64,000 nt of DNA from Nanobdellati archaeon (GTDB lineage Archaea; EX4484-52; GLR71). Below, one piece after another: positions 275 through 50,350 of this stretch. The DNA lies in assembly GCA_019429005.1 (NCBI GenBank), contig JAHYJR010000001.1, forward strand, positions 195,232 to 259,231. The letters run 5' to 3'. The notes under the pieces were generated by a model that was given only the letters and a program-made list of their open reading frames with translations, had not been told where the DNA came from and ran no database searches. The position numbers were made by a program, and so were the translations under genes. Numbering within the stretch: position 1 is the stretch's first letter; each line of letters begins with the position of its first letter.

Positions 275-1612
275 ATGTGTGTGATTATTATGTCTTCTCA
301 ACAATTAAAAAAAATTCTTGATGATTTGAAAATAGTTATCGGTTCAAAAATCGTTGTTAAAACAAAAGATACTATTTATGAAGGTATTCTTATGCCTCGT
401 TCTGAGCTTTCAGATCAAAACACAATTGTTATGAAACTTGATAATGGATATAATGTAGGGATTCTGTATACTAAAGATGTTTCAATACAAGCCTCTAAAA
501 CCAAAGCTATTGTGAGAACTTTAGGTAAACAGAAACAAGTAAATCAGAAATTCGATCCCAAAAAACCAAAGATTTCTCTTGTATCAACAGGGGGCACAAT
601 ATCTGCGCGTGTTGATTATAAGACGGGTGGTGTTTATTTCCTGATGGACCCTGAAGAAATTCTTTCAGGTGTACCCGAACTTAAAGATATAATTAATCTT
701 GACAGTATAAAAAGTCCTTTTAAGGTAGGTAGTGAAGATATGTCACCAAAGGATTATATAGTTCTTGCAAAAACCATAGCAAAAGAGCTAAATTCTGGTG
801 CAGATGGTGTTATTGTAACACATGGTACTGATACACTTCATTATACGAGTGCTGCATTATCTTTTATGCTTAGGGATCTTTCAAAACCCGTCGCTCTTGT
901 TGGTGCTCAAAAATCCTCAGATCGAAGTAGTTTTGATGGTGCAATTAATCTAATCTGTGCTGCACGGTATGTTGCAAGTGATATGGCTGGTGTTGCTGTT
1001 GTTATGCATGGTAGTCTTAATGATGATTATTGTCTTGTAACGCCCGGTACTAAAGTTCGTAAGATGCATACTTCAAGACGTGATGCATTTAGGCCTATAA
1101 ATGCATTGCCTATTGCAAAAATTTGGCATGATGGTAAATGTGAGATAATTGATAAGGCTTATAAGAAAAAGTCAGATTCAAAAGTTACGCTTGATGCAAA
1201 GTTTGAGGATAAAGTTGCGATTGTGCATACCTATCCTGGTGCGAAAACGGACATTTTAGATTTTTATGTTGCTAATAGGTATAAAGGTATTGTGATTGGT
1301 GCAACTGCTTTAGGTCATGTGCCTTCATCATGGCTATCTTCATTAAAAAAAATGATTGATGCTGGTATTTCTGTTGTTATTGCGTCTCAGACTTTATATG
1401 GTAGTACACATCCTCATGTATATAGACAGCTTATTGAATTGGATAATATTGGTGTTATTTTTGTTAAGGATATGCTTCCAGAAGTTGCTTATATAAAATT
1501 AGGATGGGTTCTTGCACATGTTACAAAATCTGATGATGTTAAAAAGATGATGCTTGAAAATTATGCAGGTGAATTTACAACGTGTTTAACGCTTAATATG
1601 TTCCTTTATTAA
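275..1612 (+). CDS. gatD: Glutamyl-tRNA(Gln) amidotransferase subunit D (asparaginase-like domain)
   Basis: 445 aa. Asparaginase-type motifs TGGTIS and HGTDT; length and domain order typical of archaeal GatD. Alternative start at 290 (MSSQQ...). Confidence 0.88.
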   Translation: MCVIIMSSQQLKKILDDLKIVIGSKIVVKTKDTIYEGILMPRSELSDQNTIVMKLDNGYNVGILYTKDVSIQASKTKAIVRTLGKQKQVNQKFDPKKPKISLVSTGGTISARVDYKTGGVYFLMDPEEILSGVPELKDIINLDSIKSPFKVGSEDMSPKDYIVLAKTIAKELNSGADGVIVTHGTDTLHYTSAALSFMLRDLSKPVALVGAQKSSDRSSFDGAINLICAARYVASDMAGVAVVMHGSLNDDYCLVTPGTKVRKMHTSRRDAFRPINALPIAKIWHDGKCEIIDKAYKKKSDSKVTLDAKFEDKVAIVHTYPGAKTDILDFYVANRYKGIVIGATALGHVPSSWLSSLKKMIDAGISVVIASQTLYGSTHPHVYRQLIELDNIGVIFVKDMLPEVAYIKLGWVLAHVTKSDDVKKMMLENYAGEFTTCLTLNMFLY

Positions 1613-1635
1613 GATTTATGTTAATATTATAACAA

Positions 1636-1651
1636 TGTGTCATATGACACA
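1636..1651. promoter_or_regulatory. Perfect 16-bp palindrome TGTGTCATATGACACA, 12 bp upstream of the HD-like gene start
   Basis: Seen directly in the sequence. A near-identical palindrome TTGTGTCATTTGACACAA recurs at 39805-39822. Confidence 0.4.
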
Positions 1652-1662
1652 AAGGTGATTAT

Positions 1663-2250
1663 ATGATTGATAATGCAATAGAAAATACGCAAATATTTGT
1701 GTCTAAAAAGATGGGTCAAGACCCACTTTTTGGGTATCTTCATGCTGAGCGGGTTCGTATGAATGCACTTAAGCTTGCTGAAACGTTAGGTGGTAATAAA
1801 CAAATTGTTCAGATTGCAGCACTTTTTGATGATATATCTTTTAATAAAAATAATGTTGAGACTCATGCTATTGAAAGTGCCAATATCGCTAAGACATTTC
1901 TTGAACACGAACTTAAATTTCCAACCGTTAAAATTAATGCAATCTTGAATATAATAAAAAAACATGAGCGACGTGTGTGGTCTGAGGATTTTAAACCTGA
2001 AACTCTTGAAGAAAAAATTGTATTTGATGCTGAAGTGATGGAACGTGTGTCTGCACTTGGTTTTGTCAAATTTATACATACTGCTGGTACTCTTAATTTT
2101 AATAGTCGGGAATTGATAAATCTGCTTAATGATTTTATTGAAAATAATTATTCAGCTATATTTTTTGACGAGACTAAGAAACATCTTGAATGGGATTATA
2201 GGCTTGTTGGTACAATGCTTAAGAATATTAAGACTGAATGTGAATTTTAA
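1663..2250 (+). CDS. HD-domain-like hypothetical protein (putative phosphohydrolase fold; the HD dyad appears as F-D-D)
   Basis: 195 aa. Has H..R and AALFDDI motifs resembling an HD domain, but the canonical HD is replaced by DD. Sits between gatD and gatE. Confidence 0.4.
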   Translation: MIDNAIENTQIFVSKKMGQDPLFGYLHAERVRMNALKLAETLGGNKQIVQIAALFDDISFNKNNVETHAIESANIAKTFLEHELKFPTVKINAILNIIKKHERRVWSEDFKPETLEEKIVFDAEVMERVSALGFVKFIHTAGTLNFNSRELINLLNDFIENNYSAIFFDETKKHLEWDYRLVGTMLKNIKTECEF

Positions 2251-2265
2251 GTTATTGGTGTATAT

Positions 2266-4140
2266 ATGGTATCTCACGATTATAAAAAACTAAATTTCAA
2301 ATGTGGTTTGGAATTTCATCAAGCTCTTGATACTGGAAAATTATTTTGTTCTTGTTCAAGTAAACTTTCTGAAGAATTGTTTGTTACTTCAGTTGAGCGT
2401 CGTCTTAGGCCTGTTGCTGGTGAAACAGGAAATGTGGATCCTGCAGTTCTTTTTGAATCCTTTAGGGACCGATCTTTTGTTTATAATATATATGCAGGTG
2501 AATCTTGTCTTGTTGAGTTGGATTGTGAACCTCCGCACCCCGTAAACGCATTGGCTTTCGATGTTTCACTTAAGATTGCTTTGATGCTTAATCTTGATAT
2601 ACCTCATGAAATATTTTTTATGCGTAAGACTGTTAATGATGGTTCAGCAACATCTGGATTTCAAAGAACTGCTTTAATAGGTACTGGTAATATGAATTCA
2701 ATAATAAAAAGTTCATTTGGTGATGTGCATATAGAAAATATGAGTCTTGAAGAGGATGCTTCAAAAATAGAAAAACGTGAAGGTGCTAAGGTTTATTATT
2801 CTTTAAGTCGTTTGGGTATACCTCTTGTTGAAATAGGTACTGCACCTGAGATAAAAACACCTGAACATGCTTTAGATATTGCAAAAATTATAGGTACTTT
2901 TTTGAGATCTTTTAATGAAATTAAACGTGGTATTGGGACTATACGTCAAGATGTGAATATCTCAATCGCTGGTGGTGAACGGATTGAAGTTAAAGGTTGG
3001 CAAGATTTAAATAAATTACCGCGTTTGATTGAGAATGAAGTTTCAAGACAAATTTTTTTAATTGAATTTAAGAATTATTTGGTCGAGAAAAACTTCACTG
3101 AACTAAAAACGAATTCAGTGTGTGATGTGACTGATATATTCAAGACTTCAAAATCTAAATTAGTATCTCGGATGTTATCTGGTGATTCTGTTGTTCTCTC
3201 TCTTAAACTTGAAAACTTCAGTGAACAATTAAAACGTGATGTCTGTGTTGGTAAGACTTTTGGTAAGGAATTAGCTGAGTATGCTATGGCTTATGGTGTT
3301 AAGGGTATGATCCACAGTGATGAAGATCTTTCAAAATATGGTCTTGAAACTGAATTCAAAACACTTTCAAAATATCTTGACGCGAAAAAGAATGATCTTG
3401 TTTTAATTATAATTGAATCTGAATCTGTTGCAAAAAAAGCGATAAATTCTGTAATAGATCGTATTAATTATTGTCTTGTTGGTGTTCCTAAAGAGACTAG
3501 GGTACCAAATCATGTGCTTGCAACGACTAGTTATGCAAGACCCTTACCTGGTTCAGATCGTATGTATCCTGAAACTGATGTCGCATCTATTGTTATTGAT
3601 TCAATTACACTTAACAAAATTTCAAAAATGCTTCCCGAAACTCTTGATGCTAAACGGCAGCGTTTTGAGGCTAATTTAGGTATTAATGTAGAATTAGTGA
3701 ATGCGTTAATATCTTCTAAATATTTGTATCTTTTTGACATTTTATCTTCAAAATATGCACCTGTTGCAAAAGAAATTGCAAACTGTTTTGTGAATACTCT
3801 TTTTGATTTAAAATCTCGTGAAAATCTTGATATTGCTTTATTGGATGATATCTTTTTTGATGAGCTTTTTAGTCTTTTGATAAAACAAAAAATTAAAAAA
3901 GCAATAATTCCTTATATCTTGTCTGAAAAGATAAAAACACCTAATAAAACCATTTTAGATATATTAAGTGGTGTCGAAACAGTCTCTGATGTGGAAGTAC
4001 TATCTGTAATCAAAAAGTTGATTTCAGAAAACAAAGATGTATCAAAAAATGCGATAATGGGTATGGTTATGGCTAAGCTTCGTGGCAAAGTTGATGGAAA
4101 AGTTGTTTCTGATTTGGTTTTGAAACAATTTCAAAACTAA
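2266..4140 (+). CDS. gatE: Glutamyl-tRNA(Gln) amidotransferase subunit E
   Basis: 624 aa. N-terminus MVSHDYKKLNFKCGLEFHQ..L.TG.KLFC.C is the characteristic GatE start; length matches. GatB/YqeY-like C-terminal region. Confidence 0.88.
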   Translation: MVSHDYKKLNFKCGLEFHQALDTGKLFCSCSSKLSEELFVTSVERRLRPVAGETGNVDPAVLFESFRDRSFVYNIYAGESCLVELDCEPPHPVNALAFDVSLKIALMLNLDIPHEIFFMRKTVNDGSATSGFQRTALIGTGNMNSIIKSSFGDVHIENMSLEEDASKIEKREGAKVYYSLSRLGIPLVEIGTAPEIKTPEHALDIAKIIGTFLRSFNEIKRGIGTIRQDVNISIAGGERIEVKGWQDLNKLPRLIENEVSRQIFLIEFKNYLVEKNFTELKTNSVCDVTDIFKTSKSKLVSRMLSGDSVVLSLKLENFSEQLKRDVCVGKTFGKELAEYAMAYGVKGMIHSDEDLSKYGLETEFKTLSKYLDAKKNDLVLIIIESESVAKKAINSVIDRINYCLVGVPKETRVPNHVLATTSYARPLPGSDRMYPETDVASIVIDSITLNKISKMLPETLDAKRQRFEANLGINVELVNALISSKYLYLFDILSSKYAPVAKEIANCFVNTLFDLKSRENLDIALLDDIFFDELFSLLIKQKIKKAIIPYILSEKIKTPNKTILDILSGVETVSDVEVLSVIKKLISENKDVSKNAIMGMVMAKLRGKVDGKVVSDLVLKQFQN

Positions 4141-4200
4141 TTTAATTTTATATTGATATTTTTTAAAATAAGAACTATACTATAAAAAGGATAATTTAAC

Positions 4201-5373
4201 TTAGAAATTTAAACAGTTAAATTCTGTTTTCAAATCTTTTATTTTTTGATTTAATACTGTGTCTGTTATGTCTTGACTGTACTTGATTATTTCCGTAATC
4301 TTTTTATTGAATTCTTTAATAATCTGGGTTATTGGATGTTCTGCATATGTTTCTGTTTTGGTTGTTTTTGGTTCTAAATATGTGGGTTTTTGTGTTTCTT
4401 GTTCTTCTTCATCTTCGTTTGTATTTTTGATTGTATATAGTTCTTCGTCATCGATTCGGTTAGTACCTATTCTATGTGCATTTTGTGTATTTGATGTTTT
4501 TGGGTCCTTATAGTGTATTTTTGGATGTGTGTCTGTTGTTGTAGTATTTATGTCTGTTATATATTCTGTATTTATATTTGTTTCTGGATTTTTAATCGCA
4601 TTATATAGGTCTTCAGCATAAGTGTTTGTAAATTTATTTTTATATTTTGTAATTGTAGTTTTAAAATCTTTTACAGATCTGATTGTGTCATTAAAACGTT
4701 TTCGTCCAAGGTTTATATTACCCTCTCCGATTATATCATATAGGCTTTTTACAACCGTTTCATATTTTTCATAAAGTGTATTTGTTATGTTGTGTTTATT
4801 GTTTGCTTTTTGCACTATTGTTGCATCACCTTCTGCAATAAGTTTATTGAATTTTTTATCTATGTATGGGAGTATGTCTGCTTGTTGAGCATGTACTAAT
4901 TCGTGTGTTTTTACAGAGTCTTTATATTTTGTATCTGTTATTGAGGGGTCTAAGTATATTGAGATATGATCTGGTTTTATTTCAGTACCATTTAGTTTAT
5001 ATTTAATCTCTGTAAGACCTACTGTATTTGATGGCAATCTTGCAATTGTGTAATCTAATTCTGTAACGTCATATTTATGTTCTTTTGGTGTGTGTTTTAA
5101 TGTTTTTAGGTATCTTTCAGCTAAGTCAAATATATTATAATCTGGTTTGTTTGTTGTTGTATATTGTTTTAATATCTCTGTATTGTATTCGGGTTGTGTG
5201 TCTGTAATATATTTAGGTTGTATGTCTGTGATGTATTTTGGTTTTGTGTCTATTAAATATGGTGCTTGTTTGTTTGATATACCTAAATCTATTGTGTGTG
5301 TATCTGTTTTGTATTGTATTTGGGGAGCTACTATATATGCTGATTTCAAATCACTTAAATACATAAATAACAC
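4201..5373 (-). CDS. Thr/Asn/Lys-rich hypothetical protein with an HExxH-x19-E (gluzincin-like) motif; possible Zn metallopeptidase
   Basis: 390 aa. THELVHAQQ...(19 aa)...AEGDAT has the spacing of thermolysin-type zincins. Internal short repeats KYITDIQP/KYITDTQP. No recognisable signal peptide. Confidence 0.4.
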   Translation of the reverse strand: MLFMYLSDLKSAYIVAPQIQYKTDTHTIDLGISNKQAPYLIDTKPKYITDIQPKYITDTQPEYNTEILKQYTTTNKPDYNIFDLAERYLKTLKHTPKEHKYDVTELDYTIARLPSNTVGLTEIKYKLNGTEIKPDHISIYLDPSITDTKYKDSVKTHELVHAQQADILPYIDKKFNKLIAEGDATIVQKANNKHNITNTLYEKYETVVKSLYDIIGEGNINLGRKRFNDTIRSVKDFKTTITKYKNKFTNTYAEDLYNAIKNPETNINTEYITDINTTTTDTHPKIHYKDPKTSNTQNAHRIGTNRIDDEELYTIKNTNEDEEEQETQKPTYLEPKTTKTETYAEHPITQIIKEFNKKITEIIKYSQDITDTVLNQKIKDLKTEFNCLNF

Positions 5374-5570
5374 CTGATTTTTGTTAAAGTTAAAATTAGT
5401 TATATATATTTCATATTTATTTAATTTTATAAATATTTGTTAAATATTTGTGCTAACTCTCACAAAAATATGCTAGTTTTTAGGGTATTTTTTAACAGAT
5501 TAGCACGCTTGCTAACGTTTTATATCTAATACTGTATTTTTATTATTTTTTTGTCTGTTTTTTTATTTGT

Positions 5571-6623
5571 GTGAGACCAAACCTTTATTTAAACTGCGTT
5601 CTAAGATTATGTATGGTATTTAAGCATCTTGTCTTTTGGATTTCAGGAATTTTTGGAACTTCAAGGCCTGTGGTATACAAGGATGAGCTTGATGCTATTG
5701 TTGAAACTGTTGTGGGTGGGTTTTCAAAGATTAATTTACGTATTTCTCAAAGTGATAATGAACTTAGTCTTTTGAGACAATCTGTGCTTCAGACACAACA
5801 AATACCAATTAGTGTGAATCTTCCTCAATTAGATAGCCTTATTATGGGTTATTCTACGATTTCAGAACGTGTTCATGTTGTTGAGTCTAATAAAGATGTT
5901 ATTAGTAATAAATTATTTATTTTAGAATCGACGCTCTCGTCTCGTATTGATTCTATTGTGTCTCAAAAACTAGAATCTATGGGCTCTAGTACCATTTCCG
6001 GTTCTTTAACAACACCTCAAATACTTGAATCTTTGCGTGCTCTAGAATCTTCTGTAAATCATATTAAATCTGAGTTAGTTACACGTTCAACTGTTGAATC
6101 TAACAACGTTACAACACCTAACAACAACGTTACAACAGCAAATAACAATGTTACAACACCTAACAACAACGTTACAACACCTAATAACAACGTTACAACA
6201 CCTAATAACAATGTTACAACACCTAATAAGAACGTTACAACAGCAAATATGTCGTTTGATGATGATTTGACTGCACAAGACGATGTTTATGGGGGTTCCG
6301 TTGACTTTGGTCAGGGTGTACAAAACGTGTCTGGGCCAAAAGCTTTTGGTTTTAAACCTACTCGTACGGTTGTCACTTCGCGTAATATGAATAAAGTACT
6401 TGTTTCATCCTTAATACCTGTTTTTAATGAGCTTTTAAATGCTGAGAAATTTTTATCTTACTCTGAATTGTCTAAACGTCTAAATAAAAAAGAAGCAACG
6501 GCAAGAGCTTATGTTAATGCTTTGAAAACTTATGGTGTTTCTATTGATGAACAGACTGTTTCTAACGGGCGTAAGCTTGTAAGGCTTGCAAAGGATGTTG
6601 TGCGTAAATATCTTATTCCTTAA
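5571..6623 (+). CDS. Hypothetical repeat protein: coiled-coil N-region, 7 x NVTTPNNN tandem repeats, basic C-terminal domain
   Basis: 350-aa ORF, true start uncertain. Seven perfect or near-perfect 24-nt repeats at about 6102-6250. C-terminal 60 aa are helical and basic, possibly DNA-binding. Confidence 0.5.
   Translation: MRPNLYLNCVLRLCMVFKHLVFWISGIFGTSRPVVYKDELDAIVETVVGGFSKINLRISQSDNELSLLRQSVLQTQQIPISVNLPQLDSLIMGYSTISERVHVVESNKDVISNKLFILESTLSSRIDSIVSQKLESMGSSTISGSLTTPQILESLRALESSVNHIKSELVTRSTVESNNVTTPNNNVTTANNNVTTPNNNVTTPNNNVTTPNNNVTTPNKNVTTANMSFDDDLTAQDDVYGGSVDFGQGVQNVSGPKAFGFKPTRTVVTSRNMNKVLVSSLIPVFNELLNAEKFLSYSELSKRLNKKEATARAYVNALKTYGVSIDEQTVSNGRKLVRLAKDVVRKYLIP
6102..6250 (+). repeat. 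24-nt tandem repeat, 7 copies (aacaacgttacaacacctaat and variants) inside the coding region
   Basis: Seen directly in the sequence. Encodes (N)NVTTP/ANN repeats. Confidence 0.9.
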
Positions 6624-6642
6624 GATGTAATTCTTTATAGTT

Positions 6643-6775
6643 CCTGCTGTTATAACAGCAGGTTGTTATTCAATAACATTGTTATAACATTGTTATAACA
6701 CTATTTAATCAATATCTATAGTCTTATTTAATTATCTATACTGTTATAACACAGAATAACATTGTTATAACAGCT
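6643..6775. repeat. Array of GTTATAACA sites (5 exact plus 1 variant), beginning with a perfect 20-bp palindrome CCTGCTGTTATAACAGCAGG
   Basis: Seen directly in the sequence. The palindrome lies 20 bp after the stop of the repeat-protein gene; further copies fall within 130 bp. Confidence 0.6.
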
Positions 6776-8485
6776 ATAGAGACTACTGTTTTATATATCT
6801 TTCAACGTGTTTTTCATTAGTTAGGGGTTTATTAGTCACTGAAGCTTCATTGAACTTTTTTTTGAATTCACTGAAACTTCACTGCACTATAAAACTAAAA
6901 TATGTTTTTTGTGTGTGGGTGTTTTTATCGTTTTATAATCTTTTTGTTTTGCGTTTCCCTCTATTTCTATTGTTTTTTTCTGTTTTTTTGATCTGTTAGA
7001 ATCTTTGGGTTTGTGTATGTGTGTGTGTGTATGTGTTTGGATTTTGTTATTTGTGTTATTTTGGGTGGTGTCTATTAGTCTATGTTCTGTTATAATTTTC
7101 TACAAAAATAACCACTTTTTGTGAGGGTTAAACTTTTGTTTATTTATGTTGTTTGAATTTAGCTTTCTTATGGTCTTTATTGGCTCTTTTAGGTCTCCGT
7201 TTGTCTCGATTGTGGCATTTATTTTGTTTAACTCTATATTATTTAGTATTTCTTTGTCTTTTGCCCCCCCCCTTTAGTATTCTCATTTGATTTCGTTTAT
7301 TTTTCATTTAGATTTCAGGATCTTTTGTTTTCATTTTTTTTTGTCTATTTTTTTCAATTACTATCAATTTTCAGAATATTTGTTTTTATCTCTATTTTTG
7401 GCTTTTTTTTGTTATAACTCTCACATTTATATCTTATTTTATCCTAATTTGGGTTTATTTCCTGTTTTTATCTAATTTAAGCCTTTATCTGTAATCTAAA
7501 TCTATCTCTATTGTTGTATTTTCGTTGTGTTTAAGTCTTTTTAGAAAAAAATAGTTACTTTTGTTCCTTAGTTATCCTTTAGTCTGACACATCTTAACGT
7601 TTATCATGTATATCTTAGCGTTTAGTACTTTGTTTTTGTATTCCTGGTATCTGTCTCTTATTGTTCTGCGTTTCTATTATATCTCTTGAATTCTGCTCTA
7701 TATAGTACGTATTTTTTAATCGTATTATATTGCTATATTTACTGTATTTACTCTATATTGCTAGTGGTTTTTATGCTCTTTTTATTGTTTATTTTTGTAT
7801 CCTTATTTAATCTTGCTAGCACACTCTTTGGGGGTATATTTGTTTAACACAGATTTTTTATTTTACTATTTTTTTATTTTGCAGACTTTATTCACACATT
7901 TCACATTTTATTTAAATAGCTTCTGAATCTCTTTCAAATTAGACCTTAACTCTCACATTTAGTGGCTCATTTTATTTGTCTTTCTTTTTGAATTTGGGGT
8001 TTTTAAGTGTTTATTGTGCTGTTTTAACGCACTTTATACTATTTAGATTTTATTGTATTCTGCTGGTTTTTTAAAATGCTTTATATCTTTATAACACACC
8101 CGTTTTTAGGTTTTTTCCTTTCAAATGTGTATATGCCTACTGTTAAGCTCTATTTCTGTTAAATTAGATCTTGTCCTATTATATTTAGATTGTCTTATAG
8201 TTTCATAGTTTTGATATATCTTTTAAATACTACATATTATAAAACTCAATTTATACCAATAGACAAGCATATCTTTATATTGCTATATCACTAAATAAAT
8301 GGTTGTTTTATTGTCTATTGTGCTTAATAATACAGCTTATTTGGAGACAATAGCCCAAAATATGCAATCTTAGGCAAGAACTTAGTTATTTTGGCCTTTT
8401 CACGGCACAAAAATTCACAATTTTTTCATATTAGGTTTCTTTTAACTCTCTCTTTTTTTATTTTTTAAAATTCAGAACTTAGGCA

Positions 8486-8893
8486 CTAGGGTGTATCAGA
8501 TTCTGTATTATAGTTATATTTCTTTGCGCTAAACGCTTTTACTGCAAGCACTATGCTTTCAAAGAAACGTTCACATCTGTTTGATAGTTTATAATAATCA
8601 CGTTCTTTTGTTTCTATTAGACCTATGCCAATAAGTTTGTTTATCATGCTGTAATATGTTGTTTTGGATATATTGTGTTCCTTACAATATATATCCCAAT
8701 TGGACCTATCAAAAACACCATTATTACCTTTTTGTCTTAGTTCTTTTAGGAATGTATAGGCATGATCTGGCAGCATTACATTTTTTGAACCTCTATATAA
8801 CAGGCTCATAAGGCTTTCAAAATCAGGGGTTTCAAGCGGTTTTACAGATATTGTCGTGTGGTATCTTCTAGGTTTTTTTGTATCCATAATCAA
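8486..8893 (-). CDS. Small putative DNA-binding protein (winged-helix-like)
   Basis: 135 aa. The segment ISKTTYYSMINKLIGIGLIETKERDYYKLS resembles an HTH recognition helix plus wing. A TTAGGCACTA array lies upstream. Confidence 0.4.
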   Translation of the reverse strand: MIMDTKKPRRYHTTISVKPLETPDFESLMSLLYRGSKNVMLPDHAYTFLKELRQKGNNGVFDRSNWDIYCKEHNISKTTYYSMINKLIGIGLIETKERDYYKLSNRCERFFESIVLAVKAFSAKKYNYNTESDTP

Positions 8894-9223
8894 TCACATT
8901 GATTTTTTGTTTTTTCTTGTTTTTATGTATTCCTATATTATGTAGAATGGATTGGTTTTATTTTTGTCTAGAAAAAATACACCATTCTGATATGTATCTG
9001 AATACACAACACTCGTACAAAACCCCCTTGATTACTAGCCTAAACATGGCAAAAATAGCGAAGCTAGTATGTTTAGTTTAGTTATATTAGAATAATGTAG
9101 TGTTACTAAGGTATATACAAATAAAAGTATAATGATATAGTAAGATATTTTATATCTTATATATTAGACTATCTAAATACATATATATCTATATTACAAT
9201 GTATATACTGTACAATGTATAAG

Positions 9224-9391
9224 TTAGGCACCAATATTGTTTTTGTTAGGCACTAAAAAGTAGGGTTGTTAGGCACTATTTTTGTTTTTTTAGGTTATAA
9301 AATTCATTTAGATAATACGTATTTTTGTATGCTATCTGTAATTTAATGTGTATTGTTTATGTATGTTTGAATAATATGTAGTTAGGCACTA
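9224..9391. promoter_or_regulatory. Cluster of four TTAGGCACTA/TTAGGCACCA sites (9224, 9246, 9269, 9382) between two wHTH genes
   Basis: Exact 10-mer repeats spaced 22-23 bp. Further copies at 8479 and 16266. An exact 10-mer is expected about 0.1 times in this window by chance. Confidence 0.45.
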
Positions 9392-9472
9392 GACAGGTTC
9401 TTATTTAGCCCTTTTAATCAAAATTTAAGAAAAAACAGACTTTTTAGGCTAAAAATAAACAAAAAAACGATA

Positions 9473-9757
9473 TCACTTAAGCTTTTTCATCACTTTTTCA
9501 AAATCTTTAGCATATTCAGAACCTTTTTCAGTCAGTTTTATGTATTTTATACGACCTACTTTTTCAAAAGAAACAATACCTTTTTTCATGAAAAGCTCAA
9601 GTATCTTTACTGTATGTGAATATGTGCAATCTGTTATTTTTGCAAGTGTTGATGCATATACACTTTCATTCTTAATACGTAATGCTAATAGTATTTGAAC
9701 GGGTTTTGCGTGTAAAAAGAGATCACATAATTCTTCATTTTCTTTAACCATATTCAA
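9473..9757 (-). CDS. Winged-helix transcriptional regulator (ArsR/TrmB-like fold)
   Basis: 94 aa. YASTLAKITDCTYSHTVKILELFMKKGIV...GRIKYIKLTEKG is a typical HTH plus wing. Confidence 0.55.
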   Translation of the reverse strand: MNMVKENEELCDLFLHAKPVQILLALRIKNESVYASTLAKITDCTYSHTVKILELFMKKGIVSFEKVGRIKYIKLTEKGSEYAKDFEKVMKKLK

Positions 9758-11640: not shown

Positions 11641-11713
11641 TAGTCCCGCCAGGATTCGAACCTGGGTCTAGAGATCCAGAGTCTCTTATGCTTGGCCTCT
11701 ACATTACGGGACT
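11641..11713 (-). tRNA. tRNA-Gln (anticodon CUG)
   Basis: Cloverleaf read by hand. Acceptor AGTCCCG/CGGGACT; anticodon stem AGAGA/TCTCT with loop CTCTGGA; T-arm CCAGG-TTCGAAT-CCTGG. CCA not encoded. Confidence 0.85.
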
Positions 11714-11756: not shown

Positions 11757-12590
11757 ATGGTTATGATTCAAAAATCTGATGGCGTTGTTGAAGCTCTTGA
11801 TATTAAAAAAACAAGACATAGTTGTATTCGCGCAGGTGCAACAGAACAGATGGCTGATGAGATTATGAAGGTTGTTTTATCAAAAATAAATGATGGTGAT
11901 AGTACAAAAAAAATAAGGACTATAATATATGATGAATTACATAAGCGTGAAGATACTTTAGCGCATAGGTATGATCTTAAATATGCACTTTCTAGGCTTG
12001 ACCCTACAACAAGTCAATTTGAGAAATACATAACTAGACTTTTTTCTTATTTCGGTTATGAGACAAAGCATAGTCCCGTACCCAAACCTATGGGTCATTG
12101 CACAGATCACGAAATTGATGTATTTATGAAAAATTCTGAAGGTATAAAATTCATAGAATGTAAGCATCATTTTCATTATTATCGTGATACCGGTCTTGAT
12201 GTGCCAATGCGTGTCTGGGCTAGACTTCAAGATCTTCAAGATGGTTTTAAAAGCGGTCGTAAAAATTCATTTAATTTTAAAGGCGCATGGGTCATCACAA
12301 ACACAAAATTATCAGGGTATGCAATAAGGTATGCAACTTGTAAGAAAATAGAATATCTGGCCTGGAATCAACCTAAAGGTAATGGTTTGAATGATTACAT
12401 TGAAAAAGTGAAGGCCTATCCGTTAACCATAGTACCTTTGAATGATTATGATCGTGTGAAACTTGCTGCTGAAAACATAATAGATATTAAGGATTTTGTT
12501 GCAGCCGACCCTGATAAATTATTAAAATCGGGTATATCAAACGCGAAATCAGAGAAAGTACGTCGTTTTATATATAAATTGACAGAGTGA
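11757..12590 (+). CDS. ATP-cone domain protein fused to an Mrr-like (PD-(D/E)xK) restriction-endonuclease catalytic domain
   Basis: 277 aa. N-terminus VMIQKSDGVVEALDIKKTRHSCIRAG fits the ATP-cone consensus VIKRDG..E.F...KI. Central region FEKYITRLFSYFGYET...D-HEIDVF...ECKH fits Mrr_cat D...(D/E)xD...(E/Q)CK. Confidence 0.6.
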   Translation: MVMIQKSDGVVEALDIKKTRHSCIRAGATEQMADEIMKVVLSKINDGDSTKKIRTIIYDELHKREDTLAHRYDLKYALSRLDPTTSQFEKYITRLFSYFGYETKHSPVPKPMGHCTDHEIDVFMKNSEGIKFIECKHHFHYYRDTGLDVPMRVWARLQDLQDGFKSGRKNSFNFKGAWVITNTKLSGYAIRYATCKKIEYLAWNQPKGNGLNDYIEKVKAYPLTIVPLNDYDRVKLAAENIIDIKDFVAADPDKLLKSGISNAKSEKVRRFIYKLTE

Positions 12591-16225: not shown

Positions 16226-16298
16226 TATTTAGATTTCGGTATTAAGTTATTTAACTTTATCTAAGTTAGGCACTAATAAATTTTTAAGGTTTATCAAA

Positions 16299-46842: not shown

Positions 46843-46902
46843 CGGTACAAATAAGTTTATTTAAAATTATTTAAATCATTATTTTTATAAATCTATTAAA
46901 GC

Positions 46903-46937
<35 letters not shown>

Positions 46938-46976
46938 GTGATTATTAATAATATTTAGTTATACAAGGTTTTCCAA

Positions 46977-48506
46977 ATGTCAGTAAAGAAAAAAGACAAT
47001 AAATTTCAAGAACAGTTTATATCATTCTTACAACAGAAAGGTTTTATCTGGGGTCCTGAACCTGAATTATATGGGGGTCTTGCAGGTTTCTATACATATG
47101 CACCACTTGGAAAACGTCTGAAAAATAATGTTGAAAATCGTATTCGTTCAGTCTTCCAAAAAAATGATATGTGGGAAGTTGAATGTCCGACAATTATGCA
47201 GAAAGAGGTTTGGCAAGCATCAGGACATTTAGATAATTTTACAGATCCTTTGGTTGCTTGTTCAAAATGTAATGCTTCATTTCGTGCTGATAAACTTATA
47301 GAAGAGAAATACGATGACGTTGTTGCAGATGCATTTAGCGAAAAAGAACTTCTTGATTTTATAAATGATAAAAAAATAAAATGTCCTGTTTGTGGTTCTC
47401 AATTTATTCAAGAGATTAAGCAACATAATCTGATGATGAAAACCACAATCGGCACAAAAATTGAAGCATATAACCGACCAGAAACTGCTACAACAACATA
47501 TCTTCCATTTATTCGTTATGTAGATTATTTTAGGAAAAAAATACCCTTTGGTGTTTTCCAGATCGGAAAAGCTTATCGAAACGAGATTTCACCAAGACAG
47601 CATGTGCTTCGGATGCGCGAATTTACGCAAGCTGAAGGTCAGATGTTTATCTTTAAAGAGCAGAAAAATAATTTTGAAAGGTATGATTTAATTAAAGAGT
47701 CAAAATTACCTCTTTGGTCACACCAATTACAAGACACTTCGAAAGAACCTAAAATGATATCAGTTTCAGATGCAATGAAAAAAGGTTATCTAAAGAATCA
47801 GGCATATGCATGGTCTGTTAATTTAGCATATACACTTTTTAGAGAAATCGGAATTCCTGAAGAATATATAAGGCTTCGTCAGCATACGCCTGGAGAGTTA
47901 GCATTTTATGCAGATGATGCATGGGATCTTGAGATTAAGACAAACAGTTTTGGTTGGGTTGAATGTTGTGGTATTCATGATAGAACTGATTATGATTTAA
48001 CTCAACATGCAAAAGCATCAGGTAAAAAGTTAGAAGCTTTAGATGAGAATAATGAAAAGACAGTTCCAAATATTCTTGAGATTGCTTTTGGAACAGACCG
48101 ACCTGTATTTGCTCTTCTTGATATAACATATAATCAAGCAGAGGATCGGACTGTATTATTTGTACCTTATAATCTTGCACCAATACAAGTTGCAGTATTA
48201 CCACTTGTAAAGAGAGATGGTCTTGACACAATTGCAAAAGAGTTGTTCAATAAATTGAACGGTAAATTCATTGCATATTATGATGAGGGTGGTTCTGTTG
48301 GTCGGCGTTATGCAAGGATGGATGAGAAAGGTACTCCTTATATAATTACAACAGATACTGATACACTTACAGATAATAGTGTCACAATTCGTGATCGTAA
48401 TTCAACAAAGCAAATAAGAATCCAGCTTGAAGATGTGCCTGATGTTCTTGATAATTTGTTTTCTAGTAAGAAACAATTTGAAGATTTAGGTAAAATTATA
48501 GAGTGA
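46977..48506 (+). CDS. glyS: Glycine--tRNA ligase (archaeal/eukaryotic alpha2 type)
   Basis: 509 aa. N-terminal YGGLAGFYTYAPLG (GlyRS motif 1), class II core, C-terminal anticodon-binding domain. Confidence 0.88.
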   Translation: MSVKKKDNKFQEQFISFLQQKGFIWGPEPELYGGLAGFYTYAPLGKRLKNNVENRIRSVFQKNDMWEVECPTIMQKEVWQASGHLDNFTDPLVACSKCNASFRADKLIEEKYDDVVADAFSEKELLDFINDKKIKCPVCGSQFIQEIKQHNLMMKTTIGTKIEAYNRPETATTTYLPFIRYVDYFRKKIPFGVFQIGKAYRNEISPRQHVLRMREFTQAEGQMFIFKEQKNNFERYDLIKESKLPLWSHQLQDTSKEPKMISVSDAMKKGYLKNQAYAWSVNLAYTLFREIGIPEEYIRLRQHTPGELAFYADDAWDLEIKTNSFGWVECCGIHDRTDYDLTQHAKASGKKLEALDENNEKTVPNILEIAFGTDRPVFALLDITYNQAEDRTVLFVPYNLAPIQVAVLPLVKRDGLDTIAKELFNKLNGKFIAYYDEGGSVGRRYARMDEKGTPYIITTDTDTLTDNSVTIRDRNSTKQIRIQLEDVPDVLDNLFSSKKQFEDLGKIIE

Positions 48507-48932: not shown

Positions 48933-49123
48933 TGTGTGATGAAAAAAGCAATAAAACTTGGAAATGAGTTTGTTGATGCTTATCTTTATGCTAAGGTTAA
49001 GGTGTGATTATATCTAATTTTTGAAGATGTTTTTATTCCGTTTCTCTGTTTTTGTTATACTTGATTGTTTCATACACCTATTTTTTTAAAATCTTAAGTG
49101 ACTATTTTACGAAAAATATATAT

Positions 49124-49462
<339 letters not shown>

Positions 49463-49501
49463 ATCGTTATAAAAAAATGTAAAATATCTTTAGTTGATTG
49501 T

Positions 49502-50350
49502 ATGAAACAAAACATTAATAATCATCTCAGTATAATGACAATTTTATTAAGAAAATGTAATTTATATTGTGATCATTGTTCTTCTAATTCTTCGTTTAAA
49601 CGTGAAGGTTTTGTTAATACTGATGATATTTTAAACATATTGGAAGCTTTTGCGCCATATGCCAAGAAAAAACAGCATCTTGTTAGTGGAGGGGAACCAA
49701 CATTACATCCAGATTTACATTATGTATTATCTGCTTCAAACGATTTGGGTTATAAGACATCAGTTGTGACTAATGCGTCTTGGATTGATCTTGATGATAT
49801 GGGTAAGACTGAAAGATTTTTTTATGACACTTTTCCTGAAGATTTAAAGATAACATCATCTTTTGATCTGGAGCATTTCAAGGAAGATCCAATGCTTCTC
49901 CAAAGATTATCTGTTTTACATGATTTAACACATAATCGCAATAAAATTACTATTGATGGTGCATATAATGGCGTTAACGGTATAAAGAAAATACAGTCTT
50001 ATTTAGACGAAACTACATTTGATTATATGTTGATTCCTATGCAGAGTATGGGGCGGGCAACAAATTTAGTAAATCAGAATATTTTAGATAATAATAAATT
50101 ATCTTGTCCTAAAGGTGATAAGAAAGGGTTTGTTATCACTGATGATGGTGTATATTATTGCTTAAGGACTGCTCTTACTTCAAATCCTTGTTTTAAACTT
50201 TCAGATAGTTATGATGTGGAAGAAATATTACATGCTTTGGATTGTTTCAATTCATCTTCAATAAACAGTTCAATCGTATCATTATATGATAATTTATCGC
50301 CTCAAGAGATTATTGATAATTATCATTATCCTTGTGATTTATGCGAATAG
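49502..50350 (+). CDS. Radical SAM protein with C-terminal Cys-rich region (possible SPASM/twitch auxiliary cluster)
   Basis: 282 aa from MKQNINNH.... CNLYCDHC equals CxxxCxxC at residues 19-26; GGEP motif; C-terminal cysteines C..(CPKGD)...YYC......C and terminal CDLC. Confidence 0.72.
   Translation: MKQNINNHLSIMTILLRKCNLYCDHCSSNSSFKREGFVNTDDILNILEAFAPYAKKKQHLVSGGEPTLHPDLHYVLSASNDLGYKTSVVTNASWIDLDDMGKTERFFYDTFPEDLKITSSFDLEHFKEDPMLLQRLSVLHDLTHNRNKITIDGAYNGVNGIKKIQSYLDETTFDYMLIPMQSMGRATNLVNQNILDNNKLSCPKGDKKGFVITDDGVYYCLRTALTSNPCFKLSDSYDVEEILHALDCFNSSSINSSIVSLYDNLSPQEIIDNYHYPCDLCE

Follow-up and report, generated by a model that had tools for sequence, protein, structure and literature searches.

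A conserved noncoding, motif-bearing gap between convergent genes in a small clade of DPANN archaea

Why does the chromosome of a DPANN archaeon keep almost two kilobases of DNA without a gene between two convergent genes? The question arises from a 64,000-nucleotide stretch (hereafter the window) of the genome of a Nanobdellati archaeon (GenBank assembly GCA_019429005.1, contig JAHYJR010000001.1, positions 195,232 to 259,231 of the forward strand). In this window, positions 6624-8485 (1862 nt) are bounded by the stop codons of the genes at 5571-6623 (plus strand) and 8486-8893 (minus strand). This gap is the longest intergenic region of the window, the runner-up measuring 579 nt. An earlier note, made from the sequence alone, had described it as a 1.85-kb, strongly T-skewed region free of open reading frames (ORFs), and had offered three explanations, namely a heavily decayed gene, a large noncoding RNA, or a replication or packaging region of an integrated element. 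Comparison with related loci indicates that the gap is functional DNA and not the product of decay, and that it forms the noncoding core of a cis-acting chromosomal module conserved in, and specific to, a small clade of DPANN archaea. The module is probably involved in chromosome maintenance. We suggest tentatively, as a possibility somewhat short of an even chance, that it is a putative protein-bound cis-element of a termination and dimer-resolution region, working like the dif boundary of Thermococcus.

Coding state and anatomy of the gap

The lack of genes in the gap was borne out by several analyses. Only one ORF of 60 aa or longer lies inside it (7287-7475, plus strand, 62 aa, TTG start), and stop codons are dense in all six frames. 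When codon usage was scanned as log-odds, with 33 long genes of the window as the training set, no frame-specific coding signal appeared between 6750 and 8400 (maximum 0.06 per codon); the flanking genes scored 0.2-0.6 in the same scan. A tblastn comparison of the gap with the proteins of the neighbouring genes gave no match, and no remnant of an integrase or other protein.

Instead of genes, the gap and its surroundings carry three short motifs. M1 is TAACTCTCACATT, M2 is a TGTTRYAACA palindrome that often occurs as a 21-nt dimer, and M3 is GTTAGGCAC. The gene preceding the gap, which we call the anchor gene, encodes a protein with a C-terminal winged helix-turn-helix (wHTH) domain. The parts of the locus in the window are as follows.

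5454-5464, plus strand: M1 core TAACTCTCACA upstream of the anchor gene, within the divergent promoter region
5571-6623, plus strand: anchor gene, encoding a coiled coil, a disordered linker and a C-terminal wHTH; product 100% identical to database protein P0001
6101-6249, plus strand: seven tandem 21-nt repeats within the anchor gene, coding for NNVTTP, with the M2-like DNA sequence AAYGTTACAACA
6643-6772, no strand assigned: M2 cluster with five exact TGTTATAACA palindromes, at 6648, 6680, 6691, 6742 and 6763
6840-8150, plus strand: T-rich, ORF-free spacer with an imperfect (GT)n tract at 7008-7037 (7012-7036 according to Tandem Repeats Finder) and a C9 run at 7264-7272
7120-7130, minus strand: inverted M1-like copy TAACCCTCACA
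7415-7427, plus strand: exact M1 copy TAACTCTCACATT on the motif map
7947-7959, plus strand: second exact copy of M1
8150-8300, no strand assigned: AT- and TpA-rich island at which the T-skew ends, the positional counterpart of an island of 85-92% AT in relatives
8330-8455, plus strand: conserved terminal block, ATATGCAATC...AAGAAC...GGCCTTTT..., which aligns in all eight loci compared (see below)
8443-8455, plus strand: degenerate M1 copy TAACTCTCTCTTT at the end of the terminal block
8486-8893, minus strand: convergent gene for a 135-aa wHTH protein, 63% identical to a 131-aa AF_0843-family protein of a related locus (L086)
9223-9389, plus strand: M3 array with four exact GTTAGGCAC copies, at 9223, 9245, 9268 and 9381

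All five exact M2 copies of the 64-kb window sit in the cluster at 6643-6772, which includes a perfect 20-nt palindrome, CCTGCTGTTATAACAGCAGG (6643-6662), and a 21-nt dimer (6680-6700). Exact M3 copies number five in the window against 0.12 expected by chance, and a further copy with one mismatch lies at 8478-8486. The only exact M3 copy outside the locus (GTTAGGCAC, 16265-16273) precedes the start codon of AlaRS by about 40 nt, so M3 may double as an ordinary operator. AT enrichment of the 8150-8300 island is weak in the window. Searches of the literature with the motif strings returned irrelevant matches only.

The anchor protein is on record as K0B02_00980 (P0001), a hypothetical protein of a "DPANN group archaeon" metagenome-assembled genome (MAG) encoded on a 287-kb contig; the database version begins at M15 of the ORF 5571-6623, that is, at position 5613. 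Its family is small: a search of 1.84 billion proteins gave only 13 representative clusters at E ≤ 1e-30. An AlphaFold2 model predicts helices at residues 2-13 and 23-165, disorder at 166-250 and a confident wHTH at 259-334. Foldseek matched this model with generic MarR/ArsR/Fur-type wHTH folds and nothing more specific; likewise, Pfam and NCBIfam gave weak HTH matches at most and a PDB search returned generic wHTH proteins only. No match came from a protein-alignment scan of metagenomes, and exact-protein look-ups of P0001, of GatE and of a 94-aa wHTH protein of the window returned no record.

The repeats at 6101-6249, in which TGTTACAACA occurs at 6149 and 6212, are M2-like, suggesting that the putative binding-site array begins inside the linker-coding sequence. 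In-gene M2 sites and NVTT/NIVTT peptide motifs are present in all 12 aligned anchor homologues. The peptides NNVTTP or NNIVTT correspond to AAYAAYRTTGTTACAACA at the DNA level; the disordered linker is thus encoded by tandem copies of what is presumed to be the protein's own binding motif. A linker encoded by an array of presumed binding sites would be an unusual overlap of coding and cis-regulatory information.

Conservation in related loci and linkage to xerA and dif

Related loci were defined as contigs encoding homologues of the anchor protein. Seven were informative (L081, L082, L083, L086, L087, L089 with its duplicate L090, and L331), making eight loci together with the window. The clade that carries the module is a small DPANN group, some members of which are labelled Aenigmarchaeota. 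In each of the seven related loci an uncalled gap of 0.75-1.6 kb separates an anchor orthologue from the next gene, which lies on the opposite strand, and no frame of any of these gaps holds a long ORF. Gap length over all eight loci is 0.75-1.86 kb. The order of parts is shared: the anchor gene, M2 arrays, a fast-evolving pyrimidine-rich spacer, M1, an AT/TpA island, the conserved block, M1 again, the convergent gene and M3 arrays. The plus-strand purine fraction of the relatives' gaps is 0.29-0.46.

Each class of motif recurs in the relatives. M2 arrays are found in every related locus and run from the linker codons (NNVTT, NIVTT) to beyond the stop codon of the anchor gene, in L087 as tandem units of 126 nt. 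A run of N, a scaffold gap, interrupts this tandem array at positions 9361-9460 of L087, so repeat copy numbers in these assemblies are unreliable. M1 lies on the plus strand, its last copy abutting the stop codon of the convergent gene, and is identical between loci whose anchor proteins share only 30-47% identity. The M1 string AACTCTCACAT was confined to loci of this family among the 90 loci compared, and none of the 80 unrelated archaeal GatE loci contained it. M3 forms arrays of four to five copies. In the loci that we call context 1, which lie between the LeuRS-SecE-Spt5-L11-L1-L10-L12 cluster and DUF192/GCD14, these arrays are inverted and flank the whole unit. An island of 85-92% AT lies between the last two M1 copies of the relatives and exceeds the 99th percentile of each locus. 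The terminal block aligns across all eight loci, positions 8290-8490 of the window included.

The manner of divergence is informative. Between L081 and L083 the genes are 80-90% identical, and the gap is 40-68% identical with many indels, except for islands around M1. What is preserved is therefore the length, composition and short motifs of the module and not its overall sequence. Such drift with kept motifs fits protein-binding DNA, and fits neither a structured RNA nor a pseudogene. The decayed gene proposed in the earlier note is not supported, given the missing coding signal, the empty tblastn comparison, and an ORF-free state and motif order kept in seven other loci. Mis-assembly of the gap also appears unlikely, since the region has exact copies of motifs whose order is shared by independent assemblies from JGI, ENA, NCBI and Logan. 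Small minus-strand ORFs called in L087 (36 aa) and L089 (48 aa) were judged to reflect DNA-level conservation of the terminal block and were not accepted as genes.

The M2 dimer alone is not family-specific, as a degenerate M2-dimer pattern matched at least 120 unrelated metagenomic contigs of all GC contents; among the matches listed, only L255 encodes a distant relative of the anchor protein, and it has no gap. A scan of genome contigs through GatE was uninformative on synteny, as the best relatives were only about 50% identical and had no neighbouring gene in common with the window.

Six of the seven related loci have xerA as their convergent gene; in the window the 135-aa wHTH gene stands in that position. 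The relatives' recombinases score 277-281 bits against the NCBIfam XerA equivalog NF040815 (cut-off 220), and their best PDB match is Pyrococcus abyssi XerA (4a8e, E 1.9e-55). Outside their own DPANN clade, and among the matches listed, the closest proteins are XerA of Methanofastidiosa (P0026, P0027, P0029 and P0034), with 50-54% identity against about 43% for other DPANN archaea. The most conserved feature of archaeal dif is an imperfect inverted repeat with TAA-N6-8-TTA (PMC11840125), which we used as the search criterion. A near-perfect dif-like 11-6-11 inverted repeat was found 40-70 nt upstream of every xerA in the six loci, at the following positions.

L081, 11153-11180: ATGTCGCATAA-TATACA-TTATGCGACAC
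L083, 11280-11307: inverted repeat upstream of xerA
L087, 11354-11381, and L089, 11608-11635: GTGTCGCATAA-TATAGA-TTATGCGACGT
L331, about 3844-3871: same core as in L087 and L089
L082, 10553-10576: GTCGCGGAA-TCAACA-TTCCGCGAC

The AT-rich version, GTCGCATAA-TATACA-TTATGCGAC, resembles bacterial dif. M1 itself was considered as a dif site and ruled out, as it is not palindromic. A xerA gene of the window's own MAG, sought through database names, was not among the best 120 XerA relatives.

Strand bias, chromosomal setting and rival explanations

The T-skew of the gap, to which the earlier note had drawn attention, is real and extreme. Between 6840 and 8200 the plus strand consists of A 0.20, C 0.14, G 0.13 and T 0.53; the description "very few A" was thus overstated, with A as low as 0.11 at 6900-7100 only. 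The most negative AT skew of the entire 64 kb was obtained for 1360-nt windows starting at 6781-6901. Runs of five or more T number 31 on the plus strand of the gap against three on the minus strand. The features reported earlier, a (GT)n tract, a C9 run and numerous T runs, are all present. Two 21-nt direct repeats at 6836-6890 (TCACTGAAGCTTCATTGAACT and TCACTGAAACTTCACTGCACT), which jointly form a strong hairpin, mark the left edge of the T-rich spacer. No convincing periodicity was detected inside the window's spacer (500 lags, maximum z 4.2).

The asymmetry is region-wide and of leading-strand type (T > A and G > C on the plus strand). At third codon positions, plus-strand T exceeds A in 52 of 53 genes of the window whatever their orientation, and G usually exceeds C too; apart from the gap, 19 of 20 intergenic regions likewise have more T than A on this strand (pooled AT skew -0.12). 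The AT skew of the gap, -0.36 overall and -0.45 in its core, is near the silent-site bias of the left flank. Therefore, most of the T-asymmetry can be attributed to mutational strand bias of unconstrained DNA, and the T-skew appears to be mostly a passive by-product, the regional bias being fully expressed where no coding constraint acts. With a strong replication-type strand bias, any long noncoding stretch looks skewed, and skew alone is weak evidence of function. Far to the right, the radical-SAM ORF at 49052-50350 has a plus-strand AT skew of -0.49 at third codon positions, and its N-terminal part may be non-coding.

The strength of the bias changes at the gap. We denote the plus-strand skews at third codon positions AT3 and GC3. 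The five genes to the left (275-6623, one of them on the minus strand) have an AT3 of about -0.3 and a GC3 of about +0.5, and the genes to the right, from 8486 onward, have about -0.12 and +0.08 (Mann-Whitney: p = 0.001 for AT3; p = 0.002 for GC3, which falls from 0.52 to 0.08). The T-skew stops at about 8150, where the conserved unit of M1, island, block and M1 starts. GC3 also steps down across the locus in L081 (0.49 to 0.32), L087 (0.36 to 0.06), L089 (0.48 to 0.18) and L331 (0.33 to 0.06). In L082 and L086 the flanking genes show no regional bias, yet the plus strand of the gap is C-rich. Convergence of the flanking genes on the gap was seen in each of the seven loci tested. If the bias is linked to replication, GC3 would be expected to step down where forks often terminate and to step up at an origin.

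The locus lies among ordinary chromosomal genes. The window has about 30% GC and encodes GatD, GatE, AlaRS, LeuRS, Spt5-L11-L1-L10, FtsZ, both subunits (A and B) of Topo VI, MCM and TBP. In the window, L082 and L086 the module adjoins GatD-HD-GatE, and the window further carries LeuRS and the Spt5-L11-L1-L10 cluster at a distance of 10-18 kb to the right. A tRNA-Gln gene is located at 11641-11713. Partial tRNA duplicates of the att type were found neither for this gene in the window nor for the tRNA-Met of the context-1 loci. Relatives of the anchor protein were absent from the viral contigs, plasmids and phages searched, the gap DNA had no match among plasmids, and a 26-mer of the M2 dimer had no match among viral contigs. 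An M1 14-mer gave at least 120 single matches in viral contigs, without co-occurring motifs, and these are attributed to chance. The recurring gene neighbourhoods, the lack of mobile relatives and the lack of tRNA att repeats indicate that this is a resident chromosomal locus.

Other features of the surroundings were recorded. The gene at 4201-5373 (minus strand) encodes a 390-aa orphan protein that is T/K/N-rich, contains KPKYITD tandem repeats and a HELVH (HExxH) motif, and has no family match; at a comparable position upstream of its anchor gene, L082 has a Peptidase_M10 gene. Adjoining the tRNA-Gln gene, 11757-12590 (plus strand) encodes a fusion of an ATP-cone with an Mrr-like restriction-endonuclease fold. 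Directly upstream of a class II aminoacyl-tRNA synthetase gene (46977-48506) is a long (ATT)n microsatellite (46900-46976). The kilobase 49001-50000 has the lowest GC content of the window (0.19) and the highest A-tract density.

Could the locus be a replicator or a centromere? The wHTH protein might be an initiator or partition adaptor, M2 its iterons or centromere repeats, and the M1-flanked AT island an unwinding element, the whole being either the organism's own non-Orc origin or a captured plasmid-like replicon with xerA and dif. Tandem and dispersed palindromic repeats do adjoin the gene of a DNA-binding protein, most clearly as the 126-nt units of L087, the relatives' AT-rich island lies between their last two M1 copies, and a recombinase with its site beside a replicator is typical of plasmids. 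However, no similarity to Rep, ParB or other partition proteins was detected for the anchor protein with family profiles, PDB or Foldseek, the collections of mobile elements hold no relatives of it, the M1 copies are direct and not inverted, and both the converging genes and the fall in GC3 are the opposite of what an origin would give. We consider this explanation unlikely, though it is a serious rival. An oriC dependent on Orc1/Cdc6 is not supported, for want of an origin recognition box (ORB) core and of orc1/cdc6 and because of the wrong polarity. The ORB consensus has a TTCC...GAA core (PMC1904270). With up to one mismatch, the core TTCCANNGGAAA had two matches in the 64 kb, below the chance expectation, neither of them inside the gap; canonical ORB or mini-ORB elements were absent from the window. 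M1 was ruled out as an ORB, having no TTCC core. Orc1/Cdc6 was absent from Pfam scans of the window's long ORFs (most of those of 100 aa or longer), which did find MCM, TBP and Topo VI, and in the relatives no orc1/cdc6 gene was called within 8 kb of the gap.

Transcription and decay offer explanations of another sort. Runs of five or more T are an archaeal terminator signal, and the gaps of the AT-rich loci have 19-31 of them on the plus strand and 0-3 on the minus strand, so minus-strand transcription would not be terminated. The spacer might accordingly be read from the minus strand into a long, unstructured, purine-rich RNA or a long 3' untranslated region of the convergent gene, with the plus-strand T-tracts forming a zone that terminates transcripts of the anchor gene in one direction only. 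TATA-like sequences abound in the M1-flanked island, and the C-rich gaps of L082 and L086, whose flanking genes lack strand bias, would also agree with a transcript. On the other side, conservation is poor outside the short motifs, and the asymmetry in AT-rich genomes equals the regional silent-site bias and so needs no selection on a transcript; we therefore regard this explanation as improbable. The large noncoding RNA of the earlier note, taken as a structured RNA, has no support either. That note had proposed an Rfam scan, and with Rfam 15 only tRNAs reached the threshold in the window and the related loci, the best E value in 6400-9500 being 0.16 or worse. Predicted folding is weak on either strand (about -0.11 kcal/mol per nt), and the gap diverges faster than the flanking genes except at the motif islands. 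The lack of Rfam matches and the weak folding also count against a minus-strand transcript. A further alternative takes the stretch from GatE to tRNA-Gln (4.2-11.6 kb) as an orphan-gene island, left by a mobile element or by decayed genes, with the gap as its eroded interior. Orphan, low-complexity or small wHTH genes do surround the gap, a tRNA gene lies nearby, the L082 genes beyond xerA look mobile (HNH, PD-(D/E)XK and small ORFs), and the minus-strand composition of the gap is similar to that of the T/K/N-rich ORF at 4201-5373. Yet the window has neither an integrase nor a remnant of one, the tRNA has no att repeats, no coding signal is left in the gap, viral, plasmid and phage collections contain no relatives, and the ORF-free gap and its motif order are kept in eight loci within conserved chromosomal neighbourhoods. 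We find this alternative very improbable. The integrated element of the earlier note is thus not upheld, while we favour, more broadly, a cis-acting region for chromosome replication or maintenance.

Proposed role and comparison with known systems

How might a termination and dimer-resolution element, our preferred reading, work? The anchor protein would dimerise via its coiled coil and coat the M2 array, and other wHTH proteins would bind M1 and M3. Where replication terminates and dimers are resolved, the bound proteins may assemble into one large nucleoprotein structure, and this structure could be a boundary or roadblock for replication forks, for SMC-type complexes or for both.

Several points weigh against such a role. 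Iteron-like M2 arrays and a repeat-flanked AT island also fit an origin. At 73%, the AT content of the window's gap barely exceeds that of the genome (70%), and A-tracts are modestly enriched (residual z of about 3, at 7200-7400 only), with no helical phasing found. The strand-bias step changes in magnitude and not in sign. In the window it rests on five left-hand genes in 6.6 kb, the AT3 step is inconsistent among the relatives, and the context-1 loci share ancestry and are not independent samples. Finally, the 64-kb window contains no xerA, no recombinase or remnant of one, and no dif-like 11-6-11 repeat, and in L086 no xerA was called within 8 kb and no dif-like site was found. The module thus usually accompanies xerA and dif but can exist alone.

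The closest parallel is "boundary 1" of Thermococcus kodakarensis, an AT- and A-tract-rich intergenic region of about 1.9 kb between convergent genes that contains dif (Yamaura et al. 2025, PMC11840125). TrmBL2, a TrmB-like protein, covers this region, which makes Smc-ScpAB stall, and the boundary remains when dif or xerA has been removed (PMC11840125). The present locus shares with it a gene-free length of about 1.9 kb, the convergent setting, a link to Xer and dif, and winged-helix proteins encoded nearby; richness in A/T-tracts is at most partly shared. The persistence of boundary 1 without dif or XerA also fits the module of the window, which has neither. There are differences. The dif site lies inside the Thermococcus boundary, while in the relatives it lies beside the module, upstream of xerA, and AT content there is far above that of the genome, in contrast to the barely raised value here. 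M1, M2, M3 and the dedicated gene for a coiled-coil wHTH protein have no described Thermococcus counterpart. The neighbouring 135-aa protein has a weak match to Pfam TrmB that is below threshold (E 0.0055).

Archaeal Xer/dif systems in general (Cortez et al. 2010, PMC2958812) resemble the relatives' loci in the XerA equivalog and in the 11-6-11 repeat (...ATAA-N6-TTAT...) upstream of xerA. According to PMC2958812, xerA does not adjoin oriC in Thermococcales. In haloarchaea, too, a dif-like site is found upstream of the xerA operon, near a boundary (PMC11840125). The gap differs in being a large repeat-bearing spacer beside dif and not dif itself, and in occurring in the window without xerA and dif. 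Among replicators and centromeres, the comparison is with iteron origins, with sopC of the F plasmid as an example of a centromere, and with oriC3/WhiP of Sulfolobus, a captured extrachromosomal origin whose WhiP is a Cdt1 homologue. These have repeat arrays beside the gene of a presumed binding protein and an AT-rich island nearby, as here. The anchor protein, however, is unrelated to Rep, ParB or Cdt1-type proteins and has no mobile relatives, and the skew changes in the direction contrary to that expected of an origin.

Bacteria have dedicated terminus systems, namely RTP/Ter of Bacillus subtilis, and Tus/Ter and MatP/matS of Escherichia coli. The likeness is that of a winged-helix protein at paired terminus sites, binding being predicted in our case, together with a strand-bias step suggesting that forks end at the locus; beyond the generic wHTH there is no kinship of sequence or fold. 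To our knowledge, no terminus system or terminator protein of the bacterial type has been described in archaea. A bolder and quite unlikely proposal is that the locus represents a new kind of archaeal fork-barrier or termination system, in which the coiled-coil wHTH protein on polar arrays of TGTTRYAACA dimers beside xerA/dif would set where forks stop and so give rise to the strand-bias step, making it a functional analogue of RTP/Ter and Tus/Ter. We know of no account of how DPANN archaea organise, terminate and resolve their small chromosomes. The locus offers a concrete set of conserved cis-elements (M1, M2, M3 and the dif-like site), together with proteins that are candidates for binding them and a step in strand bias that can be measured. 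Should the parallel with the dif boundary of Thermococcus hold, archaea in general would have large noncoding regions coated by protein where dimers are resolved, each lineage building them from parts of its own.

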